From Clostridiales bacterium (lineage in GTDB: Bacteria > Bacillota > Clostridia > Oscillospirales > Oscillospiraceae), in NCBI GenBank assembly GCA_019421525.1, contig JAHZFC010000001.1, positions 1-42,635 on the forward strand: 42,635 nucleotides of DNA. Reading direction: 5' to 3'. The translations under genes and the position numbers were made by a program. Shown here in pieces: positions 3,571 through 25,786 of the stretch. The first letter of the stretch is position 1. Every line of letters starts with the position of its first letter. The notes under the pieces were generated by a model, which saw only the letters and a program-made list of their open reading frames with translations, was not told the DNA's origin and ran no database searches.

Positions 3571-4763
3571 GATACCGCCCCCTTGAGCTTGCGCAGGGTG
3601 GGCCCATCGATGCGGTCGATGAGCTCGTCGCACCCCCGCGTCAGGTCCCGCAGCGCCCCCAGCACACTGCCCGCCTGGGCGGTGTGCTCCACTCTGGCCG
3701 GCCGGTAGGCGGGCAGCAGGGATGGCTCCAGGGGCACCGGCCCATACATCCGGTCCACCTTGCGGCACAGCACCGGGGACACTCCCAGCGCCTGGGCCGC
3801 CTCCGCCCAGCTATGGCCCGAGCGCACCAGACAGAGGATGTGGTAGTGGAGCAGGGGCACCCCGTGGACCGTCTGGCCCCGGAGGACAAAGGCATAAAAA
3901 AACTTCCGGCTCAGCCCCAGCTTCTCCGCCAGCTCCTTCTCCCCGATGCCGGACCAGTCCCGAAACCTGACCCGGCTCACATCCACCTCCGGCAAAAAGT
4001 CCACCCGGACCGCCGCCAGCCGCTCCTCCGCCCGCTCCAGCCCCCGGTACACCGTGGACTTGTTGCGCCCCAGGTAGGCCGCCATCATGGTATAGGAGGC
4101 GTCCTGGGTGAGGGCCAGATAGATCAGCTCCGTCTGCCGCTCGGTGAGCACCTTGGTGCTGCGCACAAATTTGAGATAATCGAACCGCCCCCGGTCATCC
4201 AGACACCGGGCGATGGTCAGCCGGGCCACCACATGGTGGGCCACATGGGCCAGCCCCGCCTTGATGCCCCTCGACACCGCGGACTTGCCCACCCCCCGCG
4301 CCTGGGCGATCTCCTCCATGGTCTTTTCCCGGGTGTAATACTCGTGGATATAGGTCTTTTGCACTTCCGTGCAGCTCTGGACGCTGTCATTCAGGAGGTC
4401 GGTGAGCAGCTGGCTCTGCCGCCCGGTGGCCACCCCGTCCCGGGCCTGCTGGATGTCCTCCCAGGCCATCCCCTCCGCCTGGCTCCAGGTCATGCCGGAC
4501 AGGTCCGCCCACACCAGGTCCCCGTCAAAGATGTGGTCCCCCCGGATGGGGCGCTTCTTCTCCCCGCGCTGCCGGCCCTCCAGCCGGGCCACCTCCTCCC
4601 CGGCCTCCTGGTACATGTCCCGGAGGATGCGGGAGCGCTCCAGCTGCCGGCGGCGCTCTGCGCTGTCCAGGGTGGTCTGGGCGATCTCCCGGGCCTCCTT
4701 CATGCGGCCGTATAGTTTGGCTTTGCGCTCTCTGGCGGCCTGGAGCTCCTCCTCCCGGGTCAT
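3564..4763 (-). CDS. Multi-HTH protein with tandem sigma70 region-4-like domains
   Basis: ATG 4763 overlapping the XkdU-like stop; KTMEEIAQARGVGKSAVSRGI and LTERQTEL...SYTMMAAYLGRNKSTVYRGL, plus two further HTH-like segments. Confidence 0.7.
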   Translation of the reverse strand: MTREEELQAARERKAKLYGRMKEAREIAQTTLDSAERRRQLERSRILRDMYQEAGEEVARLEGRQRGEKKRPIRGDHIFDGDLVWADLSGMTWSQAEGMAWEDIQQARDGVATGRQSQLLTDLLNDSVQSCTEVQKTYIHEYYTREKTMEEIAQARGVGKSAVSRGIKAGLAHVAHHVVARLTIARCLDDRGRFDYLKFVRSTKVLTERQTELIYLALTQDASYTMMAAYLGRNKSTVYRGLERAEERLAAVRVDFLPEVDVSRVRFRDWSGIGEKELAEKLGLSRKFFYAFVLRGQTVHGVPLLHYHILCLVRSGHSWAEAAQALGVSPVLCRKVDRMYGPVPLEPSLLPAYRPARVEHTAQAGSVLGALRDLTRGCDELIDRIDGPTLRKLKGAVSC

Positions 4764-5347
4764 GAGGCGCTCTCCCTGGCCCGGACCATGATCTTTTGGT
4801 CGAACGCCTCCCAGGTGGGGAACTGCTCCTCCAGCTGCTCCCAGGTGAGCCCCGCCGTCTCCAGGTCCCCCCAGGTGACCGGCAGGATCACGAACTTGAG
4901 ATGGGCGGGCTTGACCTCTTCCACCGCCGCGATGATGGCGTCCAGGTCGAAGCTGGCGAAAAAGGAGCTGTCCCCCAGAAAGTAGAGGGAAAAGGTGTAC
5001 TCGTCCGTCTGCTCCACCACCACCGCCTCGTAGCCCGTCAGGGCCTTGGCGATGTCGGAGATCATCCCCGCGTTGCAGGTGCCAGACCCCAGCAGCTTGG
5101 TGGTGATGGCCGCCCGGCGCTCCTCCTCGGTGGCCCCCGCCGCCGGGGTGATGCCCACCAGGTCCTCCCACCAGGCAAGCCCCCAGGTGGCGGTGGCGAT
5201 GTGGGCCTGGTCGGCCGCGTCCAGCACCGCCGCCCGGGCGGCCAGGGCCTGATCGGTCAGGGCCACGATGATGGCCAGGCTCTTCGGATCTGCCTCCAGG
5301 TGCTCCGGCACCCGCTGGGTGCCGGGCAGGTCTTGATAGGTGGCCAT
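4760..5347 (-). CDS. Baseplate protein, XkdU/YmfQ (DUF2313)-like
   Basis: TATWGLAWWE, EERRAAI, EEVKPAHL motifs; follows baseplate J. Confidence 0.85.
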   Translation of the reverse strand: MATYQDLPGTQRVPEHLEADPKSLAIIVALTDQALAARAAVLDAADQAHIATATWGLAWWEDLVGITPAAGATEEERRAAITTKLLGSGTCNAGMISDIAKALTGYEAVVVEQTDEYTFSLYFLGDSSFFASFDLDAIIAAVEEVKPAHLKFVILPVTWGDLETAGLTWEQLEEQFPTWEAFDQKIMVRARESAS

Positions 5348-15630: not shown

Positions 15631-16866
15631 TCAGCCGGTGGCGGCCAGGGTGCCCACCACCATGCCGTTGTGGACCACCAGGTTGCCGCCCACCATGGCG
15701 TCGCCCAGGATGGTGTACATCCGTTCCACGGCCTTGACGCTCTCATCCACCCGGATGGAGTAGGGCCCAAACAGGCCCAGAAGGTAGTTCATGGGGCTGC
15801 CGTACAGCATGGTCTGGATGGCGCTGGACCCGGCGGTGGAGGCGGACAGGGCGGTGAGGGCGGACACGATGGTGTAGGGTACGAAGTTGCCCCCGTCCTC
15901 GATCATGCCAATATTGGGGTTGCCCGTGTCCGGATGGACCTTGTACACCCGGTTTTTGTCCGCGGTTCCCCGGATCTGGCCGAAGGCCTTCAGGTCCGCC
16001 TTGTTGAGGAACAGCCGGGCGTTGCCCGCGATCTCCTCGTCCCCACCGTAGGCGTAGAAGAGCAGGTCCAGCGTGTTCTCGTTGATGGCCGTGAGGTTCT
16101 CCGTGGCGAAGATCGCGCTGCCCGCCTGGTTCTTGGCGTTTTTCATGCCGTACATGTCCGGAGTGGACTGGCCGTCGCCGTTGACGATGAGCTCGGCCAG
16201 CTTCCGCCGCATGGCCCGCATGGCCATGCCGTAGATCTTGGCGTAGTAGTTGGCCGGGGACAGCCGGGAGATGTTCCGGTCCACATAGTTGGTCACGTTG
16301 ATCTCATAGGGGGCGATCTTGGCCACCCCGAAGGTGGGGTCGGCGGAGGCGGTGCGGGCGGTGCCAGCGTTGGTGGTCACCTTGCCGCCCTTGGCGTCGC
16401 TTTCGGTGATCACATAGGGCTCCAGCAGGGAACCCATGCCCTCCAGATCCTGCACCTGCACCTGGTCCACGATGGAGCTCACAGTGGTCTCCAGGTTGTC
16501 CCGGATGTTGGTCCCTGCCCCGGTGGGCTGCACCAGGGTGCCGGTGCCCAGGGTGATGGACTTGTTCACTCCCCACAGGGCCTTGCGCACCTCGGGCACG
16601 GAGAAGGTCACCTTCTCCCCCTTCATCAGCTGGCTGCCCAGCTCCTCGGCCTTGTCCTTCTCCACCTGGGGGTCGTCCGCCTTTTCCATAAATTTCCGGT
16701 CCCGCTCCTCGATCAGGTCCTGGATGGACTTGATCTCGGTGTTCATGTTGCGGACCTGCTCCATGGCGGAGTTGTAGTCCTCCTGCTTGCCCGCCTTCAG
16801 GGCGGACTCCGCCGCCTCCAGCTGGGCGGCCCGCTGCTGCTTAAGCTCGATCAGTTTGCGTCTCAT
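15631..16866 (-). CDS. Major capsid protein, HK97 fold with N-terminal scaffold (delta) region
   Basis: ATG 16866 (MRRKLIE); coiled-coil N-terminus, IVNGDG motif; synteny. Confidence 0.9.
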   Translation of the reverse strand: MRRKLIELKQQRAAQLEAAESALKAGKQEDYNSAMEQVRNMNTEIKSIQDLIEERDRKFMEKADDPQVEKDKAEELGSQLMKGEKVTFSVPEVRKALWGVNKSITLGTGTLVQPTGAGTNIRDNLETTVSSIVDQVQVQDLEGMGSLLEPYVITESDAKGGKVTTNAGTARTASADPTFGVAKIAPYEINVTNYVDRNISRLSPANYYAKIYGMAMRAMRRKLAELIVNGDGQSTPDMYGMKNAKNQAGSAIFATENLTAINENTLDLLFYAYGGDEEIAGNARLFLNKADLKAFGQIRGTADKNRVYKVHPDTGNPNIGMIEDGGNFVPYTIVSALTALSASTAGSSAIQTMLYGSPMNYLLGLFGPYSIRVDESVKAVERMYTILGDAMVGGNLVVHNGMVVGTLAATG

Positions 16867-17584
16867 CTTCGCATCCCTCCAAAATAAATCGGTTTTTCTC
16901 CAGCTCCAGCAGGGCCTCATCCCGCCAGTCCTGGCTATCGTCTCCGGGGCCTCCCCCCGGTGGGTCTGTGTCCTCGTGCGGCTGGCTTCCGCCGTACCGC
17001 TTGGCCTTGATGATCCCCGCCTCCTTCTGGGCGGGCACTGCCACCAGGCTCACCTCATAGGCGTCCCTGGGGTCATCCAGGTCAAAGTGGCAAACCTGGC
17101 CGTCATACTCCCGGCCGCCGCTGTGCTTGCACAGGGTTTCCAGCTGATTTGCCCCGCAGATGGAGCAGGTCACCCGGGCCACCGCCACCCCTACGGAGCA
17201 CTCCCGGAGCATGCCGCTCTCAATGGCGGCGATGGTCTCCGCCGTGCCCTCCGTCCGGGGCATGTAGCAGCGCAACACCAGCCGGTGGACCTCCCCCTGG
17301 GCCTCCACCTCGGCGGCATATACCCGGGCGGTCTGCACCCCGGCGCTCCACTGATGGTCCTTGAGCACCGGCTTGCCCACATACAACTGGGCCATCTGCT
17401 CCAGACAGGCCACGGTAAACCGCTCGTTGTCCCGGTCCACCTGGTCGTCACAGGCCGCCAGGCGGAAGGTGAACACCTCTTCCGCCGCCAGCGGCCGCAG
17501 GGCCTGGGCATTGATCAGCGCCAGCTCCTTCTCATCCACGGCCACCGATTTCATGATCCGGGCGGCCTTACAAAAATCGCTCAC
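16841..17584 (-). CDS. Prohead maturation protease (HK97-like)
   Basis: DRDNERF, LKDHQW, RECSVG, CSICG, AYEVSLVAVPAQ motifs. Confidence 0.85.
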   Translation of the reverse strand: MSDFCKAARIMKSVAVDEKELALINAQALRPLAAEEVFTFRLAACDDQVDRDNERFTVACLEQMAQLYVGKPVLKDHQWSAGVQTARVYAAEVEAQGEVHRLVLRCYMPRTEGTAETIAAIESGMLRECSVGVAVARVTCSICGANQLETLCKHSGGREYDGQVCHFDLDDPRDAYEVSLVAVPAQKEAGIIKAKRYGGSQPHEDTDPPGGGPGDDSQDWRDEALLELEKNRFILEGCEDETQTDRA

Positions 17585-17601
17585 GTCCTCACTCCCTTCG
17601 G

Positions 17602-17685
17602 AAAACAAAAAAGCGCCTGAGACAAGGGCGGGTCTCCCCGTCCTCGGCTCAGGCGCTGGCCCTTTCGGGCTCTGGCTCAGGCTCT
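17602..17685 (-). terminator. Box-containing terminator/attenuator C, upstream of the protease-capsid genes
   Basis: AGAGCCTGAGCC (17685-74), 16 nt, AGCGCCTGAGCC (17657-46) pairing with CTCAGGCGCT, then TTTTTGTTTT. Confidence 0.8.
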
Positions 17686-18316
17686 ATTTGTTTTTTCTAA
17701 CAGGTTCGGTCAATGCGCGTTCAACGGGCCAACCGTACACAAAAATCCTTCTTGATATTGTGGCCCGGTGTATACCAGTTATCTCTGCCCATTGTGAAAG
17801 TGTCCGAGTTTCTTTGTTTAAAGTCAGCAATGTATTATTTCGTCTATTGTTTTCTTGTGTTTTAATAGTCGTCCATCTACAGTTTTCTGGTGAATATCCC
17901 TCATTGTTGTCAATCCTGTCTATGGTTAGCCTATCGTCATACCCATTATCATTTGCCCATTCCCGAAACACCGCAAAGTCGCTCCACGCAACACAAACTC
18001 TGATTCCCCTGCCACCATAATTTTCATAATGCGGAGCCTTCGGGTCATTGCATCTGCGATTCATGTCAATCCAAATTGAATATAGGCGGGTTCCCTTCCC
18101 CCCATGCTTTGTTGCTATGACACTCATGCGCCGGGGCAACCCACAACCACAATCAAGCGACTTGCCATCTCGTAGGTTATGCCCATGCCGTATAACAGTT
18201 TTTCCGCAGTCGCACCGGCATATCCATCTGGTATTCCCGAATTTATCGTTCTCCGCTCTCTGTACAACTGTTAGGTTGCCCACTCTTTTCCCAGTTAAAT
18301 CAATTAACCTTGACAT
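17684..18316 (-). CDS. HNH-like endonuclease-family protein with DLTG.R.G N-terminus (moron copy 1)
   Basis: MSRLIDLTGK, CRCDCG, YGGRGI.VC..W, LTIDRIDNNEGYSPENCRW motifs. Confidence 0.85.
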   Translation of the reverse strand: MSRLIDLTGKRVGNLTVVQRAENDKFGNTRWICRCDCGKTVIRHGHNLRDGKSLDCGCGLPRRMSVIATKHGGKGTRLYSIWIDMNRRCNDPKAPHYENYGGRGIRVCVAWSDFAVFREWANDNGYDDRLTIDRIDNNEGYSPENCRWTTIKTQENNRRNNTLLTLNKETRTLSQWAEITGIHRATISRRIFVYGWPVERALTEPVRKNK

Positions 18317-18611
18317 CTGCCATCTCCGTCTCCTCATGCTCCGCCAGCCACTTCCGCCGCCGGGCCACATGGGCATCCACGTCCTCAAACTTGGCATAGT
18401 GCTCCGGGTGGGCCAGGCGGCTCTCCAGACACCGTTTCTGCCACTGGTAGTCGCTCATCTGCGGGATGTCCAGGATGGGCACAAAGCCGTGTTTTTGCGT
18501 GGGCTGCAATCCGATCACTCGGAAGTATCGTCCCCCCAGTTCCTGATAGAGACCTCCGTCCATGATGACGGTGCCGGGTATGTCCCCCTCTTTCACATTG
18601 ACGTAGTTCAT
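18300..18611 (-). CDS. Hypothetical 103-aa protein (paralog of 23398-23709)
   Basis: AGGAGG RBS; near-identical to the second copy. Confidence 0.85.
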   Translation of the reverse strand: MNYVNVKEGDIPGTVIMDGGLYQELGGRYFRVIGLQPTQKHGFVPILDIPQMSDYQWQKRCLESRLAHPEHYAKFEDVDAHVARRRKWLAEHEETEMADVKVN

Positions 18612-18721
18612 AAAAACCTCCTGTTGATTTCCCCCGGAGGTTATGGCATAATAGATTTACCAAACCTTCGGGTGCGGTGCATAAGGCAATCGGGATTTGC
18701 TTGCGAGGCGGCCCGGTTGTC

Positions 18722-18898
18722 TTATTTTTTCAGCCTATCATACTGTTCCTGTATGCCCTTCCGCACAATTTCTGAACGAGATAGCTTTTCGACCTCACAA
18801 CAGCTGTCAAGCTTTTCTAAAGTCTCTTTATCCATGCGGACACGAAGCATATAGTCTTTCAGGCTTTCAGTAGGACGGCCCATCTTTTGAGCAGCCAC
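18722..18898 (-). CDS. Ribbon-helix-helix (CopG-like) regulator, 58 aa
   Basis: GTG start; MGRP...LRVRMDKETLEKLD...SRSEIVRKGI pattern. Confidence 0.8.
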   Translation of the reverse strand: MAAQKMGRPTESLKDYMLRVRMDKETLEKLDSCCEVEKLSRSEIVRKGIQEQYDRLKK

Positions 18899-18914
18899 AT
18901 ATTCACCGCCTTTC

Positions 18915-18957
18915 GTTGCTACATAAGTATAATATCGCTTGTAGCAACAAAAGTCAA
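18915..18957 (-). promoter_or_regulatory. Moron promoter with inverted-repeat operator
   Basis: TTGACT-17bp-TATTAT; GTTGCTACA (18915-23) / TGTAGCAAC (18940-48). Confidence 0.7.
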
Positions 18958-18975
18958 GAGGTTTTATGAAATTTT

Positions 18976-20262
18976 TTATTCGCTGGCCGGGCGGCTCTCC
19001 GCCCGGGTGGTGCTCAGCCTCTGGAAGTCCTCCAGCGGCACATAGTTCAGGCTGGCGTAGTGGGTGTCCCCGCCGGGCACCGGGTTCAGGTCCTCCAGGG
19101 CCCGGATGTCGTTCACCGAGAATACCCCCGTCTCCCGCATGTCCTTGTACCATGTCGCCCGGCTGGCGCTGTCCCCCCGCAGTTCGCCCAGGAGGTTGAT
19201 CCGCACCTCCAGCCCCTGGCGCAACTCGCTGTCGGTGAGCAGCTTATAGCTCAGCTCCTCCTCATACTGGGTGACGATGGGGTGGAGGGTGCCCACCACA
19301 TACTCGATGGCGTTCTGTTCGTTGCTGCTGTAACTCTGTTTCCCCTCCTGGAGCTTGTACAGGGGCACCCCGAAGTACCGGGCCAGGTCCTTGACGCTCA
19401 CGTCCTGGCTCTCCACAAACTGGGCGTCCGCGTTGCTCCCGCCCATCGCCTCATAGCTTAACCCGAGGTCAAGAATCGCCACCCGGTGGCTGTTGCTGGG
19501 CCCCATGTGGACCCGCTCCCACTCCTGCCGGATGATATCCCGCTTGGTCACATAGCTCCCGTCTGTGCGCTGGATGGGCTTCCCGTCCGCCCCCTTGGCA
19601 TAGCCGCCGATGTCGGCCTCTGTCTTGAGCACCCCGGAGGGCTGGCCGCCGTTTTGGTAGTAGCTCAGGCCGTACTGCTGCTGGGCCCGGGCGGCCTGGA
19701 TGGTCTCGCTGGCCCGCCGCAGTATGCTGATCCCCACAAGGCCGTCCTTGCTGGCCCCCTTGACGTGGACCATGTCCTCGTTGGGCAGGCGCATGGCCTT
19801 CCCGGTCACCGGGTGGCTCACGTCATACCACACCCGTCCGGCCAGGTCCCGCCAGGGCTGTACCAGCCGCCAAGGCACCGGGATCAGCTCCCGGGGCCGC
19901 CCCGTCCGCTCAGACCGGACGATCCACAGGTACCCGTTGCCCCCCTCCAGGCGGCAGGTCTCCACCAGCTTCTTGGCCACGCTGGGCGCCATGGCCGGAT
20001 TGGCCCGGATATTCAGCAGGTACAGCAGCGGGTGGTCGATCCGCTCCCGGGTCCGGCTGTCAAAGACATAGATGGGCAGCTTGGCCATGGAGTCGCTGAG
20101 GATCTCGATACACCGGTCCACCACGCTCAGCTTCCGGGCGGCCTCATCCGGCACTTCTGTGCCGCCGACCGGATATCCGGCGGCGATCAGGTCCGCCGTG
20201 GTCAGCGCCTTTCCCCGCACCGGCGCCCGGGCCAGGGCCCGCAGCCCCTTGGACAGACTCAT
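18976..20262 (-). CDS. Portal protein, HK97 family
   Basis: DGLVGIS, DAQFVES...DLARYFGVP, SYSSNEQ, SVNDIRALEDL.P.PGGD motifs. Confidence 0.95.
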   Translation of the reverse strand: MSLSKGLRALARAPVRGKALTTADLIAAGYPVGGTEVPDEAARKLSVVDRCIEILSDSMAKLPIYVFDSRTRERIDHPLLYLLNIRANPAMAPSVAKKLVETCRLEGGNGYLWIVRSERTGRPRELIPVPWRLVQPWRDLAGRVWYDVSHPVTGKAMRLPNEDMVHVKGASKDGLVGISILRRASETIQAARAQQQYGLSYYQNGGQPSGVLKTEADIGGYAKGADGKPIQRTDGSYVTKRDIIRQEWERVHMGPSNSHRVAILDLGLSYEAMGGSNADAQFVESQDVSVKDLARYFGVPLYKLQEGKQSYSSNEQNAIEYVVGTLHPIVTQYEEELSYKLLTDSELRQGLEVRINLLGELRGDSASRATWYKDMRETGVFSVNDIRALEDLNPVPGGDTHYASLNYVPLEDFQRLSTTRAESRPASE

Positions 20263-20438
20263 CCGTCATCACCCCCGCTCAGGCTGGACAGCACCGCCCC
20301 GGCCATGGCCAGCACGCCCCCGGTGATGAGGCCCGCCGGAAGATAGATCATCCCGGCCCCCACCGCCACCGCGGCGGCCCCGGCCACCAGCACCAGGTCC
20401 ACGGCGTACCGGGCCAAATTCTTCAGCAGTTTTTTCAT
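20259..20438 (-). CDS. Small two-TM membrane protein between terL and portal (59 aa)
   Basis: MKKLLKNLARYAVDLVLVAGAAAVAVGAGMIYLPAGLITGGVLAMAG...; stop overlaps the portal ATG. Confidence 0.75.
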   Translation of the reverse strand: MKKLLKNLARYAVDLVLVAGAAAVAVGAGMIYLPAGLITGGVLAMAGAVLSSLSGGDDG

Positions 20439-20448
20439 ATCATTCCCC

Positions 20449-22182
20449 CTACATGCCCCAGCCCGGCCGGTCCATGGCCGCCGCCAGGTCCGGCTTCTGG
20501 TTCTGCGCCACGATGGCCGTGGCCATACTAATCACCCAGGCCACCGTGATGTCGATGCGGCCAATGCTGCGGTTTTTCATAGGCCGGATGTTTTCGTTGG
20601 CATCCACATAGCAACGTACGTTTCCAAAGCACCATCTGGCCGCTGTCGAATGGACGTGGAGCATCTCGTGGGCCCGGATGAGCCGCTCCAGCTCCTTCAT
20701 GGCCGGGCTCATGTGCATCATGGTCTGTGGGACCTCCACCACCGTCAGCCCCCGCTCGGTCAGGCGCTGGGTCAGCGTCCGGGACAGGTAGGGGTCCACC
20801 CCCAGCATCTCCAGCTGGTAGGTCTCCGCCGCCTGGGCGATGGCCTCCTCCACCTGGGTGTAGTCGATCATGTCCCCGGGGCACAGCTCCAAAAAGCCTG
20901 CCCGAGCCCAGTCCCGATAGGGCACGTGGTCCCGCTGCTCCGCCTCCAGCACCCCCTCCTGGGGCCGCCAGGCCTTCGGCAGGGCCACCCAGGTGTCCAG
21001 CCCCGGCTGGGGCGGGAAGATGAGCACAAAGGCCGTCAGGTCGGTGGTGGTGGACAGGTCCAGCCCGCCATAACACATCTTTCCCGTCAGGGTCTCCCGG
21101 ACCCATTCCTCCCGCTCGGCCTTGGCCGAGGGGCCTATCTGGGTCTTGTCATACAGGGTCAGGGGCAGCCACGAGACATCTTTTGTTGCAATCCATTGGT
21201 TCAAACGGAGCCACCGGAAATTCCGTTCCGCCGCCTCGCTCTGCCGGGCCGCCCGGGCGTCCGCCCGGAACTGCCTGGGCTTGATGGTCACCCCATAGGA
21301 GGGGTTGCACTGCTTCCACAGCTCCTCGTCGTAGATGTCCAGAGCGGCGATCTTGTCCGGGTCGTCCCCGGTCAGGATGCTGATGCCGTACATGATAGGG
21401 CACCACGCCGGGTCGTCCTGGTCCAAGGGCTGCTCCGGCTCCCCCCGGCGCCAGGCCAGCAGACGCCGGCACTTTTCATGGATCTCCCAGCCAATGCTCT
21501 TCCGGTCCGGGTCATCCCCGGCGGTGGTCAGCACGATCACCGCCTGCTGCCGCCGGGCGGCGTCCGATCCGGTGGTGAGCACGTCCCACAGCCGCCGGTT
21601 GGGCTGGGCGTGGAGCTCATCAATCAGGATCGCCGAGAATGAGTAGCCGTGTTTCGTATCGGCGTCGGAGGAGTAGACCTTCATGATCCCCCCGAACCGG
21701 GTTCGGATCTCCCGCACGCTGTCCCGGCACCAGGCCAGGGGCCGGTGGCCCGGCTGGCTCAGGGCGGTGTGCTCCACCATGTACTTGGCGCACTGGTAGA
21801 TGATGTCCGCATTGGTCTTGTCCGCCGCGAAGATACCCACCTGGGGCCGGGCCTCCCCGTCTGCCAGCAGGTGGTGGAGGCCCAGGCCGGCGGCAAATTC
21901 GCTCTTGCCGTTTTTTTTGGCGATCTCATCGTACAAAAAGCGGCGGTAGCGCACCCAGTTGCCGTCGTCATCCAGCACCTGGACGCCGTAAAACTCCCGG
22001 ATGGCCTGCTCCTCCCAGGGCAGGAGGGTAAAGGGCTTTCCCGCCCACTCGTTTTGCCCGAATACCAGCAGGGAGAAAAACCCCATGACCCGGTCCACAG
22101 CCTCCTGGCTGTACCGCAGCTGGGCCCCATCCTCCGGCTTGGGCACCTGGATGTACGGGGTCAGCCTCATCATGTCAGGCAC
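20449..22182 (-). CDS. terL: Terminase large subunit
   Basis: IAKKNGKS Walker A, IDELH Walker B, TTAG, GGLDLSTTTDLTA, RIDITVA motifs. Confidence 0.95.
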   Translation of the reverse strand: MPDMMRLTPYIQVPKPEDGAQLRYSQEAVDRVMGFFSLLVFGQNEWAGKPFTLLPWEEQAIREFYGVQVLDDDGNWVRYRRFLYDEIAKKNGKSEFAAGLGLHHLLADGEARPQVGIFAADKTNADIIYQCAKYMVEHTALSQPGHRPLAWCRDSVREIRTRFGGIMKVYSSDADTKHGYSFSAILIDELHAQPNRRLWDVLTTGSDAARRQQAVIVLTTAGDDPDRKSIGWEIHEKCRRLLAWRRGEPEQPLDQDDPAWCPIMYGISILTGDDPDKIAALDIYDEELWKQCNPSYGVTIKPRQFRADARAARQSEAAERNFRWLRLNQWIATKDVSWLPLTLYDKTQIGPSAKAEREEWVRETLTGKMCYGGLDLSTTTDLTAFVLIFPPQPGLDTWVALPKAWRPQEGVLEAEQRDHVPYRDWARAGFLELCPGDMIDYTQVEEAIAQAAETYQLEMLGVDPYLSRTLTQRLTERGLTVVEVPQTMMHMSPAMKELERLIRAHEMLHVHSTAARWCFGNVRCYVDANENIRPMKNRSIGRIDITVAWVISMATAIVAQNQKPDLAAAMDRPGWGM

Positions 22183-22660
22183 GCTTCTGGCCTCCCTGGA
22201 TCAGCTGCAGGAAGGGGTTATCCTCTTCCCCCTTCTGTGGGCTGTCCGGCACCACCAGCCGGCACCGGCTGGTCACCGTCAGCCCCATGTCGTTTCCGGC
22301 ATTTCTGGCCTGCTTGAAGTGCCGTTCCTGGATGCGCCCCCAGGCGTCAGCCCCCTCCTGATCCTTCCGGGCCAGGGCCTTGTCCGTCTCCTTCGCCGCG
22401 ACGAGGTACTGGCGCTGGGCGATGAGGTATCGGCCCAGGGTGTCACCGTCCAGGTCGGTATACAGCCCCGCCGCCAGCAGCTTCCTGCCCAGGGCCCGGA
22501 AATCCTTTTTCAGGTCCTCCGGCACCCACTTTGGCACCTTCACCGTCTTGGGGCGCTCCACCTGCACCTCCCCGGCCCGCCGCTGGGCCTCCTCGGTCTT
22601 GGACAGGTGCTTTCGCCCCTTGGCTTTGATCACATCCGTGGGCTGTCTCGGTCCCGGCAT
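22175..22660 (-). CDS. terS: Terminase small subunit, P27 family
   Basis: MPGPRQP..., GLT.TSRCRL C-terminal motif; upstream of terL. Confidence 0.9.
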   Translation of the reverse strand: MPGPRQPTDVIKAKGRKHLSKTEEAQRRAGEVQVERPKTVKVPKWVPEDLKKDFRALGRKLLAAGLYTDLDGDTLGRYLIAQRQYLVAAKETDKALARKDQEGADAWGRIQERHFKQARNAGNDMGLTVTSRCRLVVPDSPQKGEEDNPFLQLIQGGQKRA

Positions 22661-22674
22661 CGTTCCACCCCCTC

Positions 22675-22765
22675 AAACAAAATAACAGCGGCCAGCACCC
22701 TGGTCATACAGTCCTACCTCTGTATGGCTCAGGCGCTGGCCGCTATGGGCTCTGGCTCAGGCTCT
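22675..22765 (-). terminator. Box-containing terminator/attenuator B, upstream of terS
   Basis: AGAGCCTGAGCC (22765-54), 16 nt, AGCGCCTGAGCC (22737-26) inside a long stem, then TTATTTTGTTT. Confidence 0.75.
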
Positions 22766-23414
22766 ATTTTCGATGATTTCTGCACTCTGCATGGACTGGC
22801 TCACTAAAAATTCTCTCAGCTGGCCAGCCACGTTCAAATCGACTGGAAATTAGCGTCACTGGGATGCCCGTTTCCTCAGCCCATTCTCCAAGTGTTTTCT
22901 CCTCCCCATGATATTGCAGTTTGCGGTTATATCGCTTATTTCGGCCCTGCTCCTTTGCTGTTGCCCACCTGCAATTTTCGGGAGAATATCCAGCGTTGAC
23001 ATCAATTCGGTCAATCGTCAAATCATCACGATACCCGGAAGTGAGTGCCCAAGCGGCAAATGCTTCAAACGACGTTTCCCACTCTGGACAAACACATATC
23101 CCTCTGCCGCCATAATCCACATAAGACTTGCTCGTCGGGCAAATACAACGGGTTTTCATAGAACACCAGATAGAATAAAGTCGACTATCAGATTGCCCGT
23201 GCGACCTATGCGGTGTGTGTAGCCACTCCAACATCAGACACCCACAGCTTCTTGTCAACCCGTGGCGCAACCTATAGCCATCCACCTCGCATAGATTCCC
23301 ACAGTCGCACAGGCATACCCACATCGCATGACCCGCTTTTCTGTTCCTCGTGGACCGTTCTATCACGGATAAGCGGCCAAACCTCTGCCCAGTCAAATCA
23401 ATCAGCCTTGACAT
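22764..23414 (-). CDS. HNH-like endonuclease-family protein (moron copy 2)
   Basis: MSRLIDLTGQRFG, CLCDCG, YGGRGICVC.EW, LTIDRIDVNAGYSPENCRW motifs. Confidence 0.85.
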   Translation of the reverse strand: MSRLIDLTGQRFGRLSVIERSTRNRKAGHAMWVCLCDCGNLCEVDGYRLRHGLTRSCGCLMLEWLHTPHRSHGQSDSRLYSIWCSMKTRCICPTSKSYVDYGGRGICVCPEWETSFEAFAAWALTSGYRDDLTIDRIDVNAGYSPENCRWATAKEQGRNKRYNRKLQYHGEEKTLGEWAEETGIPVTLISSRFERGWPAERIFSEPVHAECRNHRK

Positions 23415-23709
23415 CTGCCGTCTCCATCTCTTTGTGCTCTGCCAGCCACTTCCGCAGCCGGGCCACTGTGGCCTCCACGTCCTCCCTCTCGGCGTACCGC
23501 TCCGGGTGGGCCAGGCGGCTCTCCAGGGCGCCCTTCTGCCACTGGTAGTCGCTCATATGCGGGATATCCAGGATGGGCACAAAGCCGATGCCCTCCGTTG
23601 GCTGCAATCCGATCACCCGGAAGTACCGTCCCCCCAGTTCCTGATAGAGGCCTCCGTCTCGGATGACGGTGCCGGGGATGTCCCCCTCTTTCACATTGAC
23701 GTATTTCAT
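23398..23709 (-). CDS. Hypothetical 103-aa protein (paralog of 18300-18611)
   Basis: AGGAGG RBS, ATG 23709; near-identical to the first copy. Confidence 0.85.
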   Translation of the reverse strand: MKYVNVKEGDIPGTVIRDGGLYQELGGRYFRVIGLQPTEGIGFVPILDIPHMSDYQWQKGALESRLAHPERYAEREDVEATVARLRKWLAEHKEMETADVKAD

Positions 23710-23823
23710 AAAAACCTCCTGTTGATTTCCCACAGGCGGTCTGATAGAATAGATTTATCAAACCTCCGTGGTTTGGTGAATAGAACGCTCACTCGGTCTT
23801 TAGCGGGACGGTGGGCGTTCTTT

Positions 23824-23997
23824 TTATGCCTCTGAGACCAAAAGTAAGTCAATCCCTCTCCGAATTGCCTCAGCAGTAGTAATGCTATGTTTTAAGCAAT
23901 ACTCAGCCAGTTTCCGGGACATTTGGGAATCCAGACGAACCTTCACATCATGGCTTTTGGGATTTTCCGATTTTGGTCTCCCTGTCCGTGGAGACAT
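23824..23997 (-). CDS. Ribbon-helix-helix (CopG-like) regulator, 57 aa
   Basis: MSPRTGRPKSENPKSHDVKVRLDSQMSRKLAEYCLKHSITTAEAIRRGIDLLL; GAGGTG RBS. Confidence 0.85.
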   Translation of the reverse strand: MSPRTGRPKSENPKSHDVKVRLDSQMSRKLAEYCLKHSITTAEAIRRGIDLLLVSEA

Positions 23998-24008
23998 CTT
24001 CTCACCTC

Positions 24009-24059
24009 ACTTTTTGAGTTCCACAAATTCACTATACTATTTGGAACTCAAAAAGTCAA
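24009..24059 (-). promoter_or_regulatory. Moron promoter with a 15-bp perfect inverted-repeat operator
   Basis: TTGACT-17bp-TATAGT; ACTTTTTGAGTTCCA (24009-23) / TGGAACTCAAAAAGT (24042-56). Confidence 0.8.
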
Positions 24060-24089
24060 GAGGCCTTATAAAATTTTTCTCAACATCGC

Positions 24090-24190
24090 ATTTTCCCATG
24101 GGGAGAAAACCCTCTCCCTACTGGCTGGGGCGGTCTCCCCTTCGTTGGCCGAAAACAATTTCACGGTGGGGGAGGGTGAAGGAAATTTGC
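24090..24190. other. Probable cos/packaging region
   Basis: Non-coding G/C-run-rich stretch just after the packaging HNH gene, the usual cos position in HNH-terS-terL phages; cut site not identifiable. Confidence 0.35.
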
Positions 24191-24255
24191 TAAAATTTCT
24201 CGCCCGCGCCCGCCGGCGCGCCCGGGCCGCACACCCGCGCCCGAAGCTAGCCCGC

Positions 24256-24630
24256 TCACCGCCTGCTCCTGCCCGAATTTTTCCGCCGATTTTGCCACTG
24301 GTCACGCATGGTCTTGCGGCTGTGGCAAGAGTGGCAAAGGCTCTGCAGGTTGTCCCGGTCTGCAAACAGCGCCCAGTCTCCCCGGTGGTCCCGCACATGG
24401 TCCACATCGGTGGCCGGCGTGCGGATGCCCCGCAGGGCGCACTCCCGGCAGAAGGGCTCCCGGAGCAGCTGCCCCGGCCGCAGGTCCTCCGTCCAGATGG
24501 GCAGGGAATACCAGCTGTGCCACTGGGCAGATTCCCGCCGGGCGGCCTGCTTGGGCTTGTGTTTCGAGCAGTATCCGTCCCTGGTCAGCGCCCCGCATCC
24601 GGGGTGCCGGCAGGGCCTGAGCGGCTTCAT
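24256..24630 (-). CDS. Packaging-associated HNH endonuclease (HK97 gp74-like)
   Basis: PCRHPGC, EPFCREC, VDHV.DH.GD..LF.D..NLQSLCHSCHSRKT motifs. Confidence 0.92.
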   Translation of the reverse strand: MKPLRPCRHPGCGALTRDGYCSKHKPKQAARRESAQWHSWYSLPIWTEDLRPGQLLREPFCRECALRGIRTPATDVDHVRDHRGDWALFADRDNLQSLCHSCHSRKTMRDQWQNRRKNSGRSRR

Positions 24631-24654
24631 GGTCACGGGCTATCACCTCCGGGC

Positions 24655-24742
24655 AAACAAAAAAGCGCCCAAGCCTCGACACACACTCTCGTGTTGGTCT
24701 TGGCTCAGGCGCTTGTCGGGTCCCGACGTTGGCTCAGGCTCT
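24655..24742 (-). terminator. Box-containing terminator/attenuator A, at the start of the late operon
   Basis: AGAGCCTGAGCC (24742-31), 17 nt with hairpin, AGCGCCTGAGCC (24713-02) pairing with GGCTTGGGCGCT, then TTTTTGTTT. Confidence 0.8.
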
Positions 24743-24908
24743 GGTCGATATTCACGATGGACTCCTGCCCGCATCGCTTGCAGTACACCGGCAGGTCTTT
24801 GGCTGTTGTCCCCGGCGTCAGCCGCAGGACCTTGTGCTTGCCGCATACCGGGCAGAGCAACCAGCCATCTTTCACGATTAGTTTACCACACTTTCCTTGG
24901 GTTTGCAA
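24705..24908 (-). CDS. Cys-rich KTR-like zinc-ribbon protein
   Basis: WLLCPVCG...T.AKDLPVYCKRCGQE..VNI pattern; TTG start with AAAAGGGG RBS. Confidence 0.8.
   Translation of the reverse strand: MQTQGKCGKLIVKDGWLLCPVCGKHKVLRLTPGTTAKDLPVYCKRCGQESIVNIDQSLSQRRDPTSA
24880..24908 (-). promoter_or_regulatory. Putative late promoter inside the 5' end of the KTR gene
   Basis: TTGCAA (24908-03)-17bp-TGn-TAAACT (24885-80). Confidence 0.6.
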
Positions 24909-24979: not shown

Positions 24980-25786
24980 CTATGCAGTTTTCCCCTTCCG
25001 CCGCTGGGGCGAATACCGCCAGGGCGTCAGGTCCAGCTCCGGGTCGGCGGACACCTCCAGCGGCACCCGGTAGTCCTCCTGATCCGGCAGGAGGTATTTG
25101 ATAAATTGATAGTTGCCGAACTCATTGACCGTCGTCCCCTCATTTTCCAAAATATAGGAGCCAGGCGGCGCCTGCAGCGTCAGGATATCCGGCACCGTCT
25201 CTGCCGGCGGCGCCACAGCCTTGGCCAGGCCCCGGGATGCCGACCAGTTTCGGGCACCCACATCTACCCGGCCATACTCCCGGGGCTCCTTGGTGAGATA
25301 CCGGGCCAGGGCCGGGAACTCCCGGGGCCGAAGGTTTTGCATCAGCACCATGCCGTTGGGCCACAGCGCCCGGAAGGTCTCCATGTCCTGGCCGGTGCCG
25401 TTGACCACCATGTGGTGATGGACCCGGCCGTCTCCGTGCTTGTCCTCGGTCACATAGACATAGCGCAGGCTCTGGCCCCTGGGCCGCCGGTGCTCCCGAA
25501 GCGTGCGGACGAATTTTTTCGCCTGCTTCACCGCCTCGTCCCGGCTAGGCGGCAGGTGCTCCTCATCATAGGTCAGGGTCACCAGCCAGTCGTCCCGCCC
25601 GAAGTTGGCAAACAGCAGGCACTCCAGCCGCTGGCAGCTGGTGCGCAGGTTGATGGCCTGGCGGGCGGCGGAGCTGGCCCGCTGCTTCTCCGCCCTGGCC
25701 CTGGGCGGATCGGCCGGTGAGTATCGGTCGTAGAGGACTGCATACCGCAGCCGGCCCGCCTCCACGGTCCGCAGCACCTTAGCCAT
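24980..25786 (-). CDS. HUH-superfamily rolling-circle Rep-like protein
   Basis: Motif I VTLTY, motif II VHHHMVVNG, motif III ARYLTKE. Confidence 0.8.
   Translation of the reverse strand: MAKVLRTVEAGRLRYAVLYDRYSPADPPRARAEKQRASSAARQAINLRTSCQRLECLLFANFGRDDWLVTLTYDEEHLPPSRDEAVKQAKKFVRTLREHRRPRGQSLRYVYVTEDKHGDGRVHHHMVVNGTGQDMETFRALWPNGMVLMQNLRPREFPALARYLTKEPREYGRVDVGARNWSASRGLAKAVAPPAETVPDILTLQAPPGSYILENEGTTVNEFGNYQFIKYLLPDQEDYRVPLEVSADPELDLTPWRYSPQRRKGKTA

Follow-up and report, generated by a model that had tools for sequence, protein, structure and literature searches.

A conserved KTR gene, tandem-box and terminator module in an Oscillospiraceae prophage, and a candidate protein gate for late-gene transcription

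The late genes of the prophage in our window (the whole 42,635-nt stretch of Clostridiales DNA analysed here) raise a simple question: what turns them on? As an earlier note on this DNA had remarked, the prophage contains no match to an ArpU-, RinA- or Q-like activator. A promoter scan scored no sigma-70-like site between the last replication gene (Rep) and the KTR-family zinc-ribbon gene that follows it. The note proposed that the KTR protein binds tandem RNA boxes and blocks the folding of three terminators standing before late genes. One such terminator at the end of the KTR gene, with two extra copies among the late genes, suggests a protein that opens its own terminators and thereby switches on the genes downstream. 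Below, we describe the elements, their linkage to KTR genes and their origins, and weigh what may read them.

Three box terminators among the late genes

Read directly, the sequence holds the three minus-strand elements with their two common boxes where the earlier note had placed them (Table 1). Each carries two 12-nt boxes, AGAGCCTGAGCC and, after a spacer of 17, 16 and 16 nt in elements 1 to 3, AGCGCCTGAGCC. In the RNA, the two boxes together comprise four NGNGCC hexamers; what separates the boxes is a gap of 2-4 nt or a small hairpin by which they are drawn together. With at most one mismatch, the 12-mer AGMGCCTGAGCC occurs nine times against 0.70 ± 0.83 expected, a count reached in 0 of 100 shuffles; six of the nine are exact boxes, and a further one comes from element 3, whose 3' arm matches on the opposite strand. 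The two-box pattern has three copies in the 2.22-Mb assembly (74.8% complete), all within the window, and the reversed-pattern control has none. Predicted folding energies are -44.9, -50.1 and -49.5 kcal/mol for elements 1 to 3 (z -3.9, -4.4 and -5.0), and none of 200 shuffles folded equally well. The proposal that box 2 is the 5' arm of the terminator holds for elements 1 and 3, where it pairs fully with the 3' arm (GGCUUGGGCGCU and CUCAGGCGCU, respectively) ahead of UUUUUUG. It fails in this form for element 2, whose register is shifted. There, no more than the first 7 nt of box 2 join the 3' half of the spacer to make up the 5' arm, and the U tract, GUUAUUUUG, is weaker.

The elements do directly precede the HNH, terS and protease/capsid genes. 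About 18 nt separate the end of element 1 from the HNH start, and 15-20 nt that of element 2 from the terS start (22660); the end of element 3 immediately precedes the protease-like gene (17608). The HNH ribosome-binding site follows element 1 directly, and in almost all related loci the HNH start, GGAGGTGATAGCC, comes directly past the U tract. Since the gap from terminator to next gene is only 15-20 nt in phages, and co-oriented genes start right after the terminator at loci L156, L157 and L164, there is no room for a promoter past the terminator.

Table 1. Features of the KTR and late-gene region (bits, covariance model R1)
Feature	Coordinates	Strand	Remarks
Rep (ORF2/G2P-type)	24980..25786	-	last replication-module gene upstream of KTR; PF23343, phrog_3584
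KTR-family zinc-ribbon gene	24705..24908	-	67 aa, TTG start, CPVC...CKRC
Element 1	24655..24744	-	box 1 24742-24731; P1 hairpin in spacer 24730-24714; box 2 24713-24702 (5' arm); 3' arm 24675-24664; U tract from 24664; 74.9 bits
HNH endonuclease	24256..24636	-	packaging module, first gene past element 1; PF01844, phrog_144
Cassette 1	22663..24078	-	~1.4 kb; ends with element 2
Cassette 1 sigma-70-like promoter	24059-24031	-	with inverted-repeat operator
Cassette 1 57-aa ORF	23997-23824	-	RHH/CopG-like only through colinearity with the cassette 2 ORF
Cassette 1 ORF-X	23733-23398	-	
Cassette 1 HNH homing endonuclease (HEG1)	23414-22764	-	
Element 2	22679..22767	-	box 1 22765-22754; box 2 22737-22726; shifted register; 60.5 bits
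Terminase small subunit (terS)	22175..22660	-	first gene past element 2; PF05119, phrog_83
Cassette 2	17608..18976	-	~1.37 kb; colinear with cassette 1; ends with element 3
Cassette 2 promoter-like site	18957-18929	-	with operator
Cassette 2 RHH ORF	roughly 18900-18722	-	
Cassette 2 ORF-X	18611-18300	-	
Cassette 2 HNH homing endonuclease (HEG2)	18397-17684	-	
Element 3	17603..17687	-	box 1 17685-17674; box 2 17657-17646; spacer hairpin GCCC-GAAA-GGGC; 72.5 bits
Protease-like gene	17608-16841	-	past element 3
Major capsid gene	16920-15631	-	past element 3; with the protease-like gene (15631..17608) matches phrog_16951, phrog_4523, phrog_18299 and PF05065

Element 1 overlaps the 3' end of the KTR reading frame, as noted before: its last 12 codons span box 1 and the P1 hairpin and reach into box 2, where the UGA stop lies. 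The TAG stops of HEG1 and HEG2, two paralogous genes for HNH homing endonucleases, mark exactly where elements 2 and 3 start. The KTR protein matches PF14205 at 44.9 bits (cut-off 25.5), all 38 of its homologues belong to that family, and PHROGs adds a weak match to phrog_6417, 'translational regulator' (E 1.4e-5). It is modelled as a beta zinc ribbon (pLDDT 76.7), and Foldseek against the PDB returned nothing at E<=0.001; so generic a zinc ribbon weighs against KTR as the gate. A homodimer model of KTR reached 0.44 (best control 0.00), barely above the mark of 0.42, which is attained by 20 of 30 known pairs but also by 1 of 23 single chains; three runs agreed in at least 95% of contacts, with a partner pLDDT of 71. 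The prediction thus favours, and lends some support to, a KTR dimer.

Linkage to KTR genes and conservation in the RNA

The KTR gene, the two boxes and the terminator form a conserved module, new here; we found no Rfam family or paper describing KTR box terminators. Co-occurrence with KTR genes goes far beyond what the earlier note could see, in strength and in breadth. A search pattern blind to KTR, GCGCCTGAGCC-N20-50-GGCTYRGGCGC (box 2 and the complementary arm) and then a U tract, matched in its first part at least 187 times in at least 152 loci. Among the matches listed, 58 go on to at least six T in 10 nt; two of these are the same hairpin on the opposite strand, and the other 56, on the correct strand, all end a CxxC...CxxC KTR-like ORF, with box 1 also present at 55. 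Box 1 and an upstream zinc-ribbon ORF accompany only 2 of the 129 listed matches that lack a U tract, the others having neither. Every one of 25 IMG/VR relatives of the KTR protein has the boxes at its 3' end; hairpin, U tract and HNH start follow in 24, and the remaining one ends at a contig edge. A covariance-model check of 150 other genomes of the order agreed, with three matches above 30 bits, all beside KTR-like ORFs. In G278, one of the genomes, the KTR gene has the element in its untranslated leader, so the link is not a by-product of coding overlap. The unit is tied to KTR genes across very distant lineages. Two observations count against a KTR gate: of 15 places read in a phylum-wide Pfam sample, only eight have the full element downstream and one more has it upstream, and a KTR subfamily beside a radical-SAM gene (L158-L160) shows no boxes. 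The system is not phage-specific; as a general module of KTR genes it also occurs in ICEs and in transporter/regulator operons of chromosomes.

The conservation is at the level of the RNA, or nucleotides, and not of the peptide. As the earlier note had seen, the stems differ in sequence yet still pair. The changes are compensatory or G·U; the boxes vary as GCCUGAGCC, GCCUGUGCC, GCCUGCGCC, GCCAGUGCC and GCCCGUGCC, and the 3' arm changes accordingly. In a 15-sequence alignment 94.7% of cells pair, both sides change in four pairs, and the covariation score was reached by 0 of 500 shuffles. Across 76 model matches (55 distinct), an alignment fitted to the model, 98.0% pair with compensatory changes at 6 of 15 pairs; none of 500 shuffles reached any of five measures, and slid controls pair at 14-52%. 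G·U wobbles occupy two stem positions in 27 and 29 of the 55 sequences, so the stem exists only in RNA of the transcribed strand. At the variable positions box 1 follows the changes of box 2 although no pairing requires this (for box 1 with the arm, pairing is not clearly better than in shuffles, 28/500 and 32/500), which fits one reader recognising both. The peptide does not follow: the boxes are read in different frames or past a stop codon, and by frame the KTR tail reads QSLSQRRDPTSA, EAPEPASKETSA, ECLCLSACAT or KCQCHECQCQ. In the branch of Tn916 orf6, boxes are kept past early stop codons (L157, L166, phi-m46.1).

Might the boxes act as DNA instead, as repeat sites for KTR as a transcription factor or for packaging proteins (terS/HNH) near cos? 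Two direct copies and one inverted copy of a 9-12-bp site do resemble protein-binding repeat arrays, elements 1 and 2 flank the HNH-terS packaging region, and zinc ribbons can bind DNA. We give this the slightest chance of the readings weighed here. The changes in the inverted copy, with their frequent G·U, preserve only RNA pairing; a spacing of 2-4 nt, or of 16-17 nt with a hairpin, keeps the geometry of RNA but not of DNA; a U tract follows the box hairpin every time; and the same design recurs in Tn916-type elements and chromosomal operons, which package nothing.

RNA-level conservation does not name its reader, however. The boxes could be a functional RNA signal read by a host factor or by RNA polymerase itself, or one on which KTR acts in another direction, the element governing KTR mRNA stability or 3'-end processing, or KTR tightening termination. 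No KTR residue was seen, by eye in the alignment, to change together with the box variant, and box terminators occur in hosts as distant as streptococci and Oscillospiraceae. Nevertheless, we consider this reading unlikely: a host-read signal need not adjoin KTR at each of the 56 sites among the matches listed, or sit in the G278 leader, and box sequences differ among KTR branches with common hosts. A termination helper also seems unnecessary for hairpins as strong as -45 to -50 kcal/mol. An element that always abuts KTR may, on the other hand, have a role in cis that needs no protein, which we count against a KTR gate.

A different though analogous arrangement of box, box and terminator, GAGCCAGACGC-NN-AGACGCAGAGCC, closes the canonical KTR genes, Tn916 orf6 among them; its last hexamer opens the terminator stem. 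Among the best 80 orf6-type loci, 71 match strictly and 68 of these 71 have a hairpin and U tract, counts that are biased because the loci were picked with a query including the tail. Orf6-type proteins are 22-27% identical to the window protein (alignment A5); Tn916 orf6 itself, a PF14205 member at 113.5 bits, is ~40% identical over the zinc-ribbon core (tblastn, residues 10-56). This small ORF after tet(M) ends, like the window KTR gene, in tandem hexamer boxes plus a terminator, but its hexamers are AGAGCC AGACGC / AGACGC AGAGCC, and the convergent orf9 comes next where the window has phage late genes. The hexamer order is A-B/A-B in phages and A-B/B-A in the orf6 type, so that a single common binding geometry is not obvious, a point against KTR as the gate. 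The portions of PMC7288454 and of preprint 10.64898/2026.10.01.756105 available to us give no function for orf6, and the available text of the canT paper (PMC11658703) does not mention it.

The position of the KTR stop invites a further alternative, ribosome-mediated attenuation, in which a ribosome ending KTR at the 5' arm would prevent folding and read-through would report KTR translation. In those phage loci that were read, the stop lies in box 2 or at most 6 nt past it; in full-length orf6-type ORFs it lies 3 nt past the last hexamer. We find this very unlikely, as it leaves box 1 and its concerted variation with box 2 unexplained; moreover, the G278 element is untranslated, several orf6-type ORFs stop between the boxes, and in elements 2 and 3 a gap of 28 nt separates box 2 from the stop of the preceding ORF. 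Transcription-translation coupling is also weak in Bacillota.

Homing-endonuclease cassettes as the source of elements 2 and 3

Two homing-endonuclease cassettes are inserted in the late operon, and their 3' ends are elements 2 and 3, respectively. The flanking genes are only 71 bp apart in a relative without cassette 1 (L145), and in phage Cormatin, which lacks cassette 2, portal and protease are separated by 17 bp. The 57-aa ORF of cassette 1 has no family match of its own at E<=1. A related phage has a third such cassette with an element at its end (locus L549); like elements 2 and 3, this trans copy ends a cassette inside the late operon of a KTR-type phage. Five related phages, searched as whole records, have exactly one element each. 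The earlier picture of three terminators gating the late operon by design is accordingly not ancestral: relatives need only one element, and the three gates are particular to the phage in the window, which weighs against the gate reading.

A further reading takes the terminators as plain and unregulated, with elements 2 and 3 as copied cassette ends and boxes kept as KTR-tail code or homogenised by recombination. The colinear cassettes and the single-element relatives fit this, as does a recurrent EPDAKTQSR tail encoded by orf6-branch boxes. We judge it decidedly unlikely, however. The boxes lie in different frames, past early stops, past the endonuclease stops and, in G278, in untranslated sequence. 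The cassette boxes are 91% identical over 44 nt while HEG1 and HEG2 are 50% identical as proteins and the inner stems are unrelated. Furthermore, if a strong terminator directly before HNH/terS were unregulated, no late gene would be transcribed, as no promoter follows it.

A candidate KTR gate and its known counterparts

We return to KTR as the reader, our leading interpretation, and give an even chance, judging from sequence patterns, to the element being a protein-gated intrinsic terminator and KTR a Com-like RNA-binding gate that blocks the folding of its own terminator. By default, the hairpin would fold and transcription of the early/replication genes would end right past KTR. Once accumulated, KTR, possibly dimeric, would bind the boxes while they are single-stranded in the nascent RNA; box 1 would emerge first, and box 2 would then be caught before the 3' arm is synthesised. 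With the terminator blocked, RNA polymerase would continue into HNH, terS, terL and the remaining late operon. The outcome would be a delayed, self-timed early-to-late switch that works site by site and not processively. The cassettes, each with its own putative promoter and a terminator bearing the same boxes, would be insulated from the late genes without KTR, as in a lysogen, and transparent with it. Tn916 orf6, which lies between tet(M) and the sig7-8 regulatory genes, would be explained in the same way, as would KTR genes located between those for transporters and regulators.

A close parallel is phage Mu Com, and the earlier comparison stands for architecture, an RNA site within the protein's own ORF beside a hairpin, but not for sequence family. 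Both are small four-cysteine zinc-finger or zinc-ribbon proteins of ~62-67 aa, yet BLASTP gave no alignment between KTR and Com, which belong to separate Pfam families (PF14205 and PF10122). The 19-mer Com site (576-594 in L465) lies toward the 3' part of com (469-657). According to the accessible part of PMC6483171, Com binding is thought to open the neighbouring hairpin in com-mom mRNA, and the paper quotes a SELEX consensus of two GAGNNCC repeats with 2-3 nt between them, similar to the GAGCC-U-GAGCC of the element. The Com hairpin hides a translation start, whereas the KTR hairpin, followed by a U tract, is of the intrinsic-terminator kind and leaves the next ribosome-binding site free, so the predicted output is transcriptional read-through and not translation.

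HutP of the hut operon, the BglG/SacY/LicT family with its RAT sites, and GlpP are antiterminators that bind RNA over the 5' arm of a terminator, and TRAP reads repeated triplets. The proposed gate would share with the antiterminators default termination and a protein on single-stranded repeats over the 5' arm that blocks the stem, and with all of these the use of short motifs repeated at fixed spacing, as two half-sites with a spacer. The KTR zinc ribbon is unrelated to the HutP, CAT or TRAP folds, and, unlike for those systems, no ligand or PTS input is evident. Where HutP- and BglG-type proteins sense metabolites, KTR is encoded immediately upstream with its own stop inside the site, which points to a self-timed feed-forward device.

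The systems of lambda N and Q, the HK022 put RNA and the Tn916 canT RNA likewise make terminators serve as gates for timing, or as insulators, within mobile elements. Tn916 uses both termination and antitermination, canT being a cis RNA between sig8 and xis (PMC11658703, in the part available). These systems modify RNA polymerase once, after which it ignores heterologous terminators; in contrast, each KTR-type terminator carries its own boxes, which argues for action site by site.

Box-containing terminator-like elements in the prophage

The window is a complete prophage, whose features are collected in the table. Read on the minus strand, its three elements follow one plan: AGAGCCUGAGCC (box 1), a spacer of 17, 16 and 16 nt, respectively, AGCGCCUGAGCC (box 2), an inner hairpin that varies, a 3' arm complementary to box 2, and finally a U tract. 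A G+C-rich stem directly before a U tract on the transcribed strand makes each a predicted intrinsic terminator, as judged from sequence and fold, and a conserved recognition-type sequence overlaps the terminator 5' arm, in the manner of HutP- and BglG-type sites. The 12-mer AGMGCCTGAGCC occurs nine times in the window with at most one mismatch, against 0.70 ± 0.83 expected (0 of 100 shuffles reach nine), while the entire 2.22-Mb assembly (74.8% complete) contains three instances of the two-box pattern, each inside the window. Elements 1, 2 and 3 fold more stably than shuffled sequences (z −3.9, −4.4 and −5.0; 0 of 200 shuffles equally stable), and R1, our covariance model of the element, scores them at 74.9 (element 1), 72.5 (element 3) and 60.5 bits (element 2), the next-best match in the window being an antisense reading at 18.6 bits.

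Direct reading, 12-mer shuffles and folds thus confirm the three box-containing terminator-like elements of the earlier note, and the comparisons below extend the observation. That note had also taken box 2 as the 5' arm in each, which holds for elements 1 and 3, as for 15 of 15 aligned relatives, but not for element 2: here, in a shifted register, the spacer contributes its 3' half to the 5' arm and box 2 its first 7 nt, with a weaker U tract downstream. The Rfam search it proposed returned no family matching the element, with no match at the gathering score in the window (Rfam 15) and none at E ≤ 1 on the elements of eight loci, including the Tn916 orf6 end. Its statement that no Q, ArpU or RinA-like activator is recognisable agrees with our domain and family searches of the prophage, which gave no ArpU, RinA, Q or sigma-like match near the early/late junction.

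Features of the prophage and of one related locus
Feature	Position	Strand	Remarks
Integrase	38680-39711	plus	accompanied by HTH regulators on the minus strand
Replication module		minus	replication initiator, DnaB, ParA, DUF3102 and PcfJ-like genes
Rep ORF2/G2P gene	24980-25786	minus	replication module
KTR gene	24705-24908	minus	element 1 comes next
Element 1	24744-24655	minus	
HNH gene	24256-24636	minus	then 1.4-kb insert with element 2 at its end
Cassette 1	24078-22663	minus	1.4 kb, colinear with cassette 2, ends in element 2
Element 2	22767-22679	minus	
terS, terL, portal		minus	then 1.37-kb insert with element 3 at its end
Cassette 2	18976-17608	minus	1.37 kb, colinear with cassette 1, ends in element 3
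Element 3	17687-17603	minus	
Protease-like gene, capsid, then connector, sheath, tube, tape-measure and baseplate genes		minus	
Sigma-like ORF, 535 aa	3564-5171	minus	three sigma-70 region-4-type HTH repeats; PF04545, PF08281, PF04297; phrog_3512 'sigma factor'
Third HNH-endonuclease-like ORF, shorter	1231-1692	plus	first 61 residues match phrog_374, as both cassette endonucleases do
Genome G278, locus L162: element	1324-1395		in untranslated leader, ~45 nt before KTR start
Genome G278, locus L162: KTR	1438-1632		

Element 1 lies at the end of the KTR gene, whose UGA stop codon is within box 2. Only ~18 nt separate its U tract from the HNH start, leaving no space for a promoter between the two. 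The sole sigma-like match in the prophage, the 535-aa ORF, lies where the tail module ends distally; because a tail-protein ORF (4760-5347) overlaps it at the 5' side, its start is provisional. Near the prophage end, the third HNH-endonuclease-like ORF adjoins an HTH_3 gene (742-1218), with no box element nearby.

Conservation of the boxes and linkage to KTR genes

The comparisons indicate that the boxes are conserved at the level of RNA, not of peptide or DNA. They are translated in differing frames, as QSLSQRRDPTSA in the window, EAPEPASKETSA in most relatives and ECLCLSACAT or KCQCHECQCQ in others, and are untranslated in G278 and downstream of the stop codons of the HNH homing-endonuclease genes (HEGs). 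In a 15-sequence alignment, box 2 and the 3' arm pair in 94.7% of cells, four pairs are changed on both sides, and the covariation score is reached by 0 of 500 shuffles. Among 76 R1 matches (55 distinct), pairing rises to 98.0%, against 14–52% in slid controls, with 6 of 15 pairs compensatory; none of five measures was reached by any of 500 shuffles, counts that overstate the case because this alignment was fitted to the model and its sequences are related. At two stem positions, 27 and 29 of the 55 sequences have a wobble pair (G·U or U·G), which restricts the stem to RNA of the transcribed strand. The boxes are set apart by 2–4 nt or by a small hairpin of 16–17 nt (3 of 3 modelled hairpin pairs compensatory), so that they stay next to each other in folded RNA, not in duplex DNA.

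An alternative fold, with box 1 taking the place of box 2 on the 3' arm, is 90% pairable, but 28 and 32 of 500 shuffles match it; since the pairing is not clearly above chance, the fold was not adopted. A long-range pairing of box 1 with the ribosome-binding-site region of the next gene, proposed by RNAalifold, showed no covariation and was dropped. Where the boxes vary (UGA, UGU/UGC, AGU/CGU), box 1 does change along with box 2, for which one reader recognising both boxes would be the simplest explanation.

The element is closely tied to KTR genes. All 25 IMG/VR loci with KTR relatives (54–70% identity) have two boxes at the ORF end, followed in 24 by a hairpin, a U tract and the conserved HNH start GGAGGTGATAGCC; the remaining locus ends at the contig end. 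To search without a KTR requirement, loose two-box patterns proved unsuitable: their matches were mostly coding repeats with spacings in multiples of 3, and real elements made up 5 of 116 viral and 1 of 120 genome stretches. We therefore used box 2 with its complementary arm, GCGCCTGAGCC-N20-50-GGCTYRGGCGC. The matches listed comprise 150 in 119 genome loci and 37 in 33 viral loci, and in 58 of these the arm is followed by at least 6 T within 10 nt. Two of the 58 are the identical hairpin read on the opposite strand; the other 56, among the matches listed, all end a CxxC...CxxC KTR-like ORF, and 55 also have box 1. Where no U tract follows (129 listed matches), the genomes are unrelated and G+C-rich, and two of these matches have box 1 and a zinc-ribbon ORF upstream. 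The locus without box 1 (L318, ~1471-1560) has lost the spacer hairpin as well and kept box 2 and the terminator, a natural one-box variant.

R1 was also scanned against 151 genomes of the same order, where it exceeded 30 bits in three besides the window's own (G278, 54.1; G535, 32.3; G543, 31.2 bits), each time beside a KTR-like ORF; 12 weaker matches (21–27 bits) were ordinary terminators or coding sequence. The co-occurrence with KTR genes that the earlier note had named as a check is thus borne out at 56 of 56 sites listed, 25 of 25 IMG/VR relatives and 3 of 3 R1 genomes. In G278 the element is untranslated and upstream of KTR, so that the association is independent of coding-end overlap; the pair is flanked by an integrase and a TetR-type gene, an arrangement in which KTR would control its own synthesis. 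The same KTR/element module is found in the cultured Flavonifractor phage Cormatin, where the KTR homologue is annotated 'translational regulator'.

A similar layout recurs in the canonical branch of the family. A tblastn search with the window protein found, in records that bear Tn916, small ORFs immediately downstream of tet(M) or tet(O). In KY065497 this ORF (PF14205, 113.5 bits) sits between tet(M) and the convergent Tn916 regulator, the place given for orf6 in the accessible text of PMC7288454. Its 3' end reads AGAGCC AGACGC aa AGACGC AGAGCC, where the last hexamer opens a hairpin and U's come next. Further orf6-type boxes in the Tn916-bearing records were limited to a 1-mismatch chance match, the copy after orf6 being the only real one. 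Two Rfam matches lie in the Tn916 of KY065497, the phage IPP61 record (L149): pemK RNA (RF02913, 55 bits; 4542-4642) between orf8 and xis, the region where the accessible part of PMC11658703 places the canT antiterminator, and SQ2397 (RF03532; 3093-3322) between the orf9-type regulator and orf7.

Across the phylum, 14 of 401 genomes scanned with Pfam had a KTR match, which gave 15 places: eight with both boxes and hairpin, one with boxes and no clear hairpin, one with box 1 only, three without boxes, one in G278 with the element upstream, and one fragment. The three without boxes form a subfamily (L158-L160; tail KNTEKQTFII) with a radical-SAM gene directly next and neither boxes nor terminator. 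A profile-guided scan of representative genomes confirmed at least 603 canonical KTR loci. Among the best 80 of these, a set biased because the query included the tail encoded by the boxes, a strict two-box expression matched 71, and in 68 of the 71 the last hexamer opens a hairpin that leads into at least 5 U in 9 nt; the other nine of the best 80 mostly differ from the expression by one or two bases. The only freely varying positions are the two spacer bases (UA 27, AC 22, AA 15, CA 5), and the boxes are kept as nucleotides in L157, L166 and phi-m46.1 even though the ORF stops between them. Gene orders include MatE–KTR–terminator–sigma region-4 protein, ABC transporter–KTR–terminator–response regulator plus kinase, TetR–KTR–terminator–ABC transporter and tet(M)–orf6–terminator–Tn916 regulatory genes. 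At L152, L154, L156, L157 and L164, KTR and terminator typically have a resistance or transport gene (MatE, ABC, tet(M)) on one side and, on the same strand, regulatory genes or more transporter genes on the other; the next gene begins right after the U tract.

Homing-endonuclease cassettes carrying elements 2 and 3

Elements 2 and 3 sit at the ends of two inserts. The relative L145 has 71 bp in place of window 24078-22663, and in Cormatin a portal–protease gap of 17 bp stands in place of window 18976-17608. Each cassette holds a promoter-like site overlapping an inverted repeat (TTGACT-17-TATAGT and TTGACT-17-TATTAT), a small ORF, an ORF of 103–111 aa without a family (ORF-X; 85% nucleotide identity between the copies) and an HNH homing endonuclease (50% identical at the protein level). 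The small ORF of cassette 2 matches ribbon-helix-helix PF01402 (E 2.4e-5); that of cassette 1 (57 aa) has no family match at E ≤ 1 and is taken as the counterpart of this RHH/CopG-like ORF solely by colinearity. The boxes of the two cassettes are 91% identical over 44 nt and their inner terminator stems unrelated, a mosaic that suggests recombination between them.

Whole-record searches of five related phages found one strong element in each (51–83 bits; next best at most 24 bits). The three elements of the earlier note are all present, but elements 2 and 3 belong to inserts and the five relatives carry one strong element each. A metagenome scan for the cassette-type box arrangement gave five loci, four after KTR genes and the fifth in the related phage L549, which has the same cassette between portal and protease and a terminal element 94.6% identical to element 2. 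All three 'orphan' elements that we know of are thus the 3' ends of HEG cassettes in late operons of this phage group. Single-protein searches of IMG/VR gave no further cassettes (HEG, one locus; ORF-X, 0). HEG relatives in cultured phages span 811 records, mostly of Staphylococcus, Bacillus and Pseudomonas phages, so the HEG family is not tied to the boxes.

The KTR protein, a proposed mechanism and known systems

The window protein matches PF14205 at residues 16–56 (44.9 bits, cut-off 25.5; E 1e-11), the family is present in 38 of 38 homologues, and the two CxxC pairs (C19, C22, C43, C46) are invariant among 39 sequences. The predicted structure is all-beta with a core pLDDT of 87–92, a zinc ribbon by sequence and model. 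The name-giving K-T-R after the first CxxC is absent from the window protein, which reads CGKHKVLR, and N-K-T-R is confined to the orf6-type rows of our KTR alignment (A5); the phage proteins therefore constitute a divergent branch of the family. Modelled as a homodimer, KTR scored 0.44 (best control 0.00), above the mark of 0.42, which 20 of 30 known pairs and 1 of 23 single chains attain; at least 95% of contacts are shared between runs (partner pLDDT 71), and the model supports a putative KTR dimer on the two boxes. Foldseek against the PDB returned generic zinc ribbons only (best E 0.59), and a PDB sequence search nothing below E 0.5. In the papers listed by a full-text literature search, PF14205 is named only as a list entry, and the literature found on Cys_rich_KTR and Tn916 orf6 gave no function for either and described no boxes; older work (1992) may describe a terminator after orf6. 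We know of no function for the KTR family.

We infer KTR binding and read-through from four observations: the RNA has a terminator-like structure, this structure is tied to KTR genes, the boxes are conserved, and no space is left for a promoter downstream. KTR would bind the single-stranded boxes of the nascent transcript and prevent the terminator stem from forming; once it had accumulated, transcription of the early/replication operon would continue into the late genes. In the lysogen, where KTR would be lacking, the cassette terminators may stop the cassettes' promoter-driven transcripts from entering terS or capsid genes, and with KTR present late transcription would pass. The same valve logic could fit the canonical contexts given above. 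Given the strong comparative linkage, we consider it plausible, and about evenly balanced, that KTR is an antiterminator acting on its own box terminator. Such control would be of a known kind, exerted through a protein family and an RNA motif that are both new.

A broader reading is more tentative, and as a whole we think it somewhat less likely to hold than to fail. On this reading, KTR proteins, with at least 603 canonical loci in representative genomes and a gut Oscillospiraceae phage lineage besides, would make up a large class of RNA-binding zinc-ribbon antiterminators that has gone unrecognised, and each would use tandem NGNGCC hexamers to gate a terminator within or beside its gene. 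For these phages KTR would supply the early-to-late switch that is missing, and for Tn916 it would mean that Orf6 lets tetracycline-induced transcription from Ptet cross the post-orf6 terminator into sig7-8, leading to excision and transfer. The cassettes would be selfish HEG inserts that have copied the boxes and so made their own terminators transparent in lytic growth. According to the accessible part of a preprint on the split sigma factor Sig7-8 (10.64898/2026.10.01.756105), initial sig7-8 expression is readthrough from Ptet; 'orf6' has 0 occurrences in its text. The Tn916 literature found on Ptet readthrough, as far as its text is accessible, does not discuss the orf6 terminator, which older work (1992) may describe.

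If true, the proposal would give the widespread PF14205 family a function and a directly testable RNA target, and would identify the late-gene switch of prophages common in human and animal gut bacteria (Flavonifractor, Dysosmobacter, Oscillibacter, Pseudoflavonifractor). It would also fill a gap in the regulatory model of Tn916, where Ptet readthrough into the sigma genes must cross the orf6 terminator. The compact module of regulator and site (~200 nt), with natural specificities in its UGA, UGU and AGU boxes, could offer orthogonal transcription valves, and the HEG cassettes would show how an essential operon can accommodate a selfish insert without polar damage.

Among known systems, Com of phage Mu comes closest as a working analogue; it is a zinc finger of 62 aa with its RNA site within the com reading frame (L465, 576-594 within 469-657). 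The accessible text of PMC6483171 describes this site as beside a hairpin that Com is thought to open, and gives a SELEX consensus of two GAGNNCC repeats 2–3 nt apart. KTR resembles Com in architecture only, with a cis element in the gene's own 3' coding end and an adjacent hairpin. In contrast to Com's translation block, the hairpin here is a predicted terminator, and by sequence KTR is not of the Com family: BLASTP of the window protein against Com gave no alignment at E ≤ 100, PF10122 (Zn_ribbon_Com), on which Com itself scores 36.8 bits, is absent from the window protein's Pfam matches, and the only family-level link is a weak PHROG match (E 1.4e-5). Site-specific antiterminators are represented by HutP and the BglG family. 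By analogy, the KTR design would match these and not the processive systems, one of which, canT, is placed elsewhere in Tn916 by the accessible part of PMC11658703. Whereas the processive systems (N, Q, put, canT) use one upstream site to render the polymerase resistant to unrelated terminators, here all three terminators come with boxes of their own, as recognised by R1, an arrangement that would fit site-specific action.
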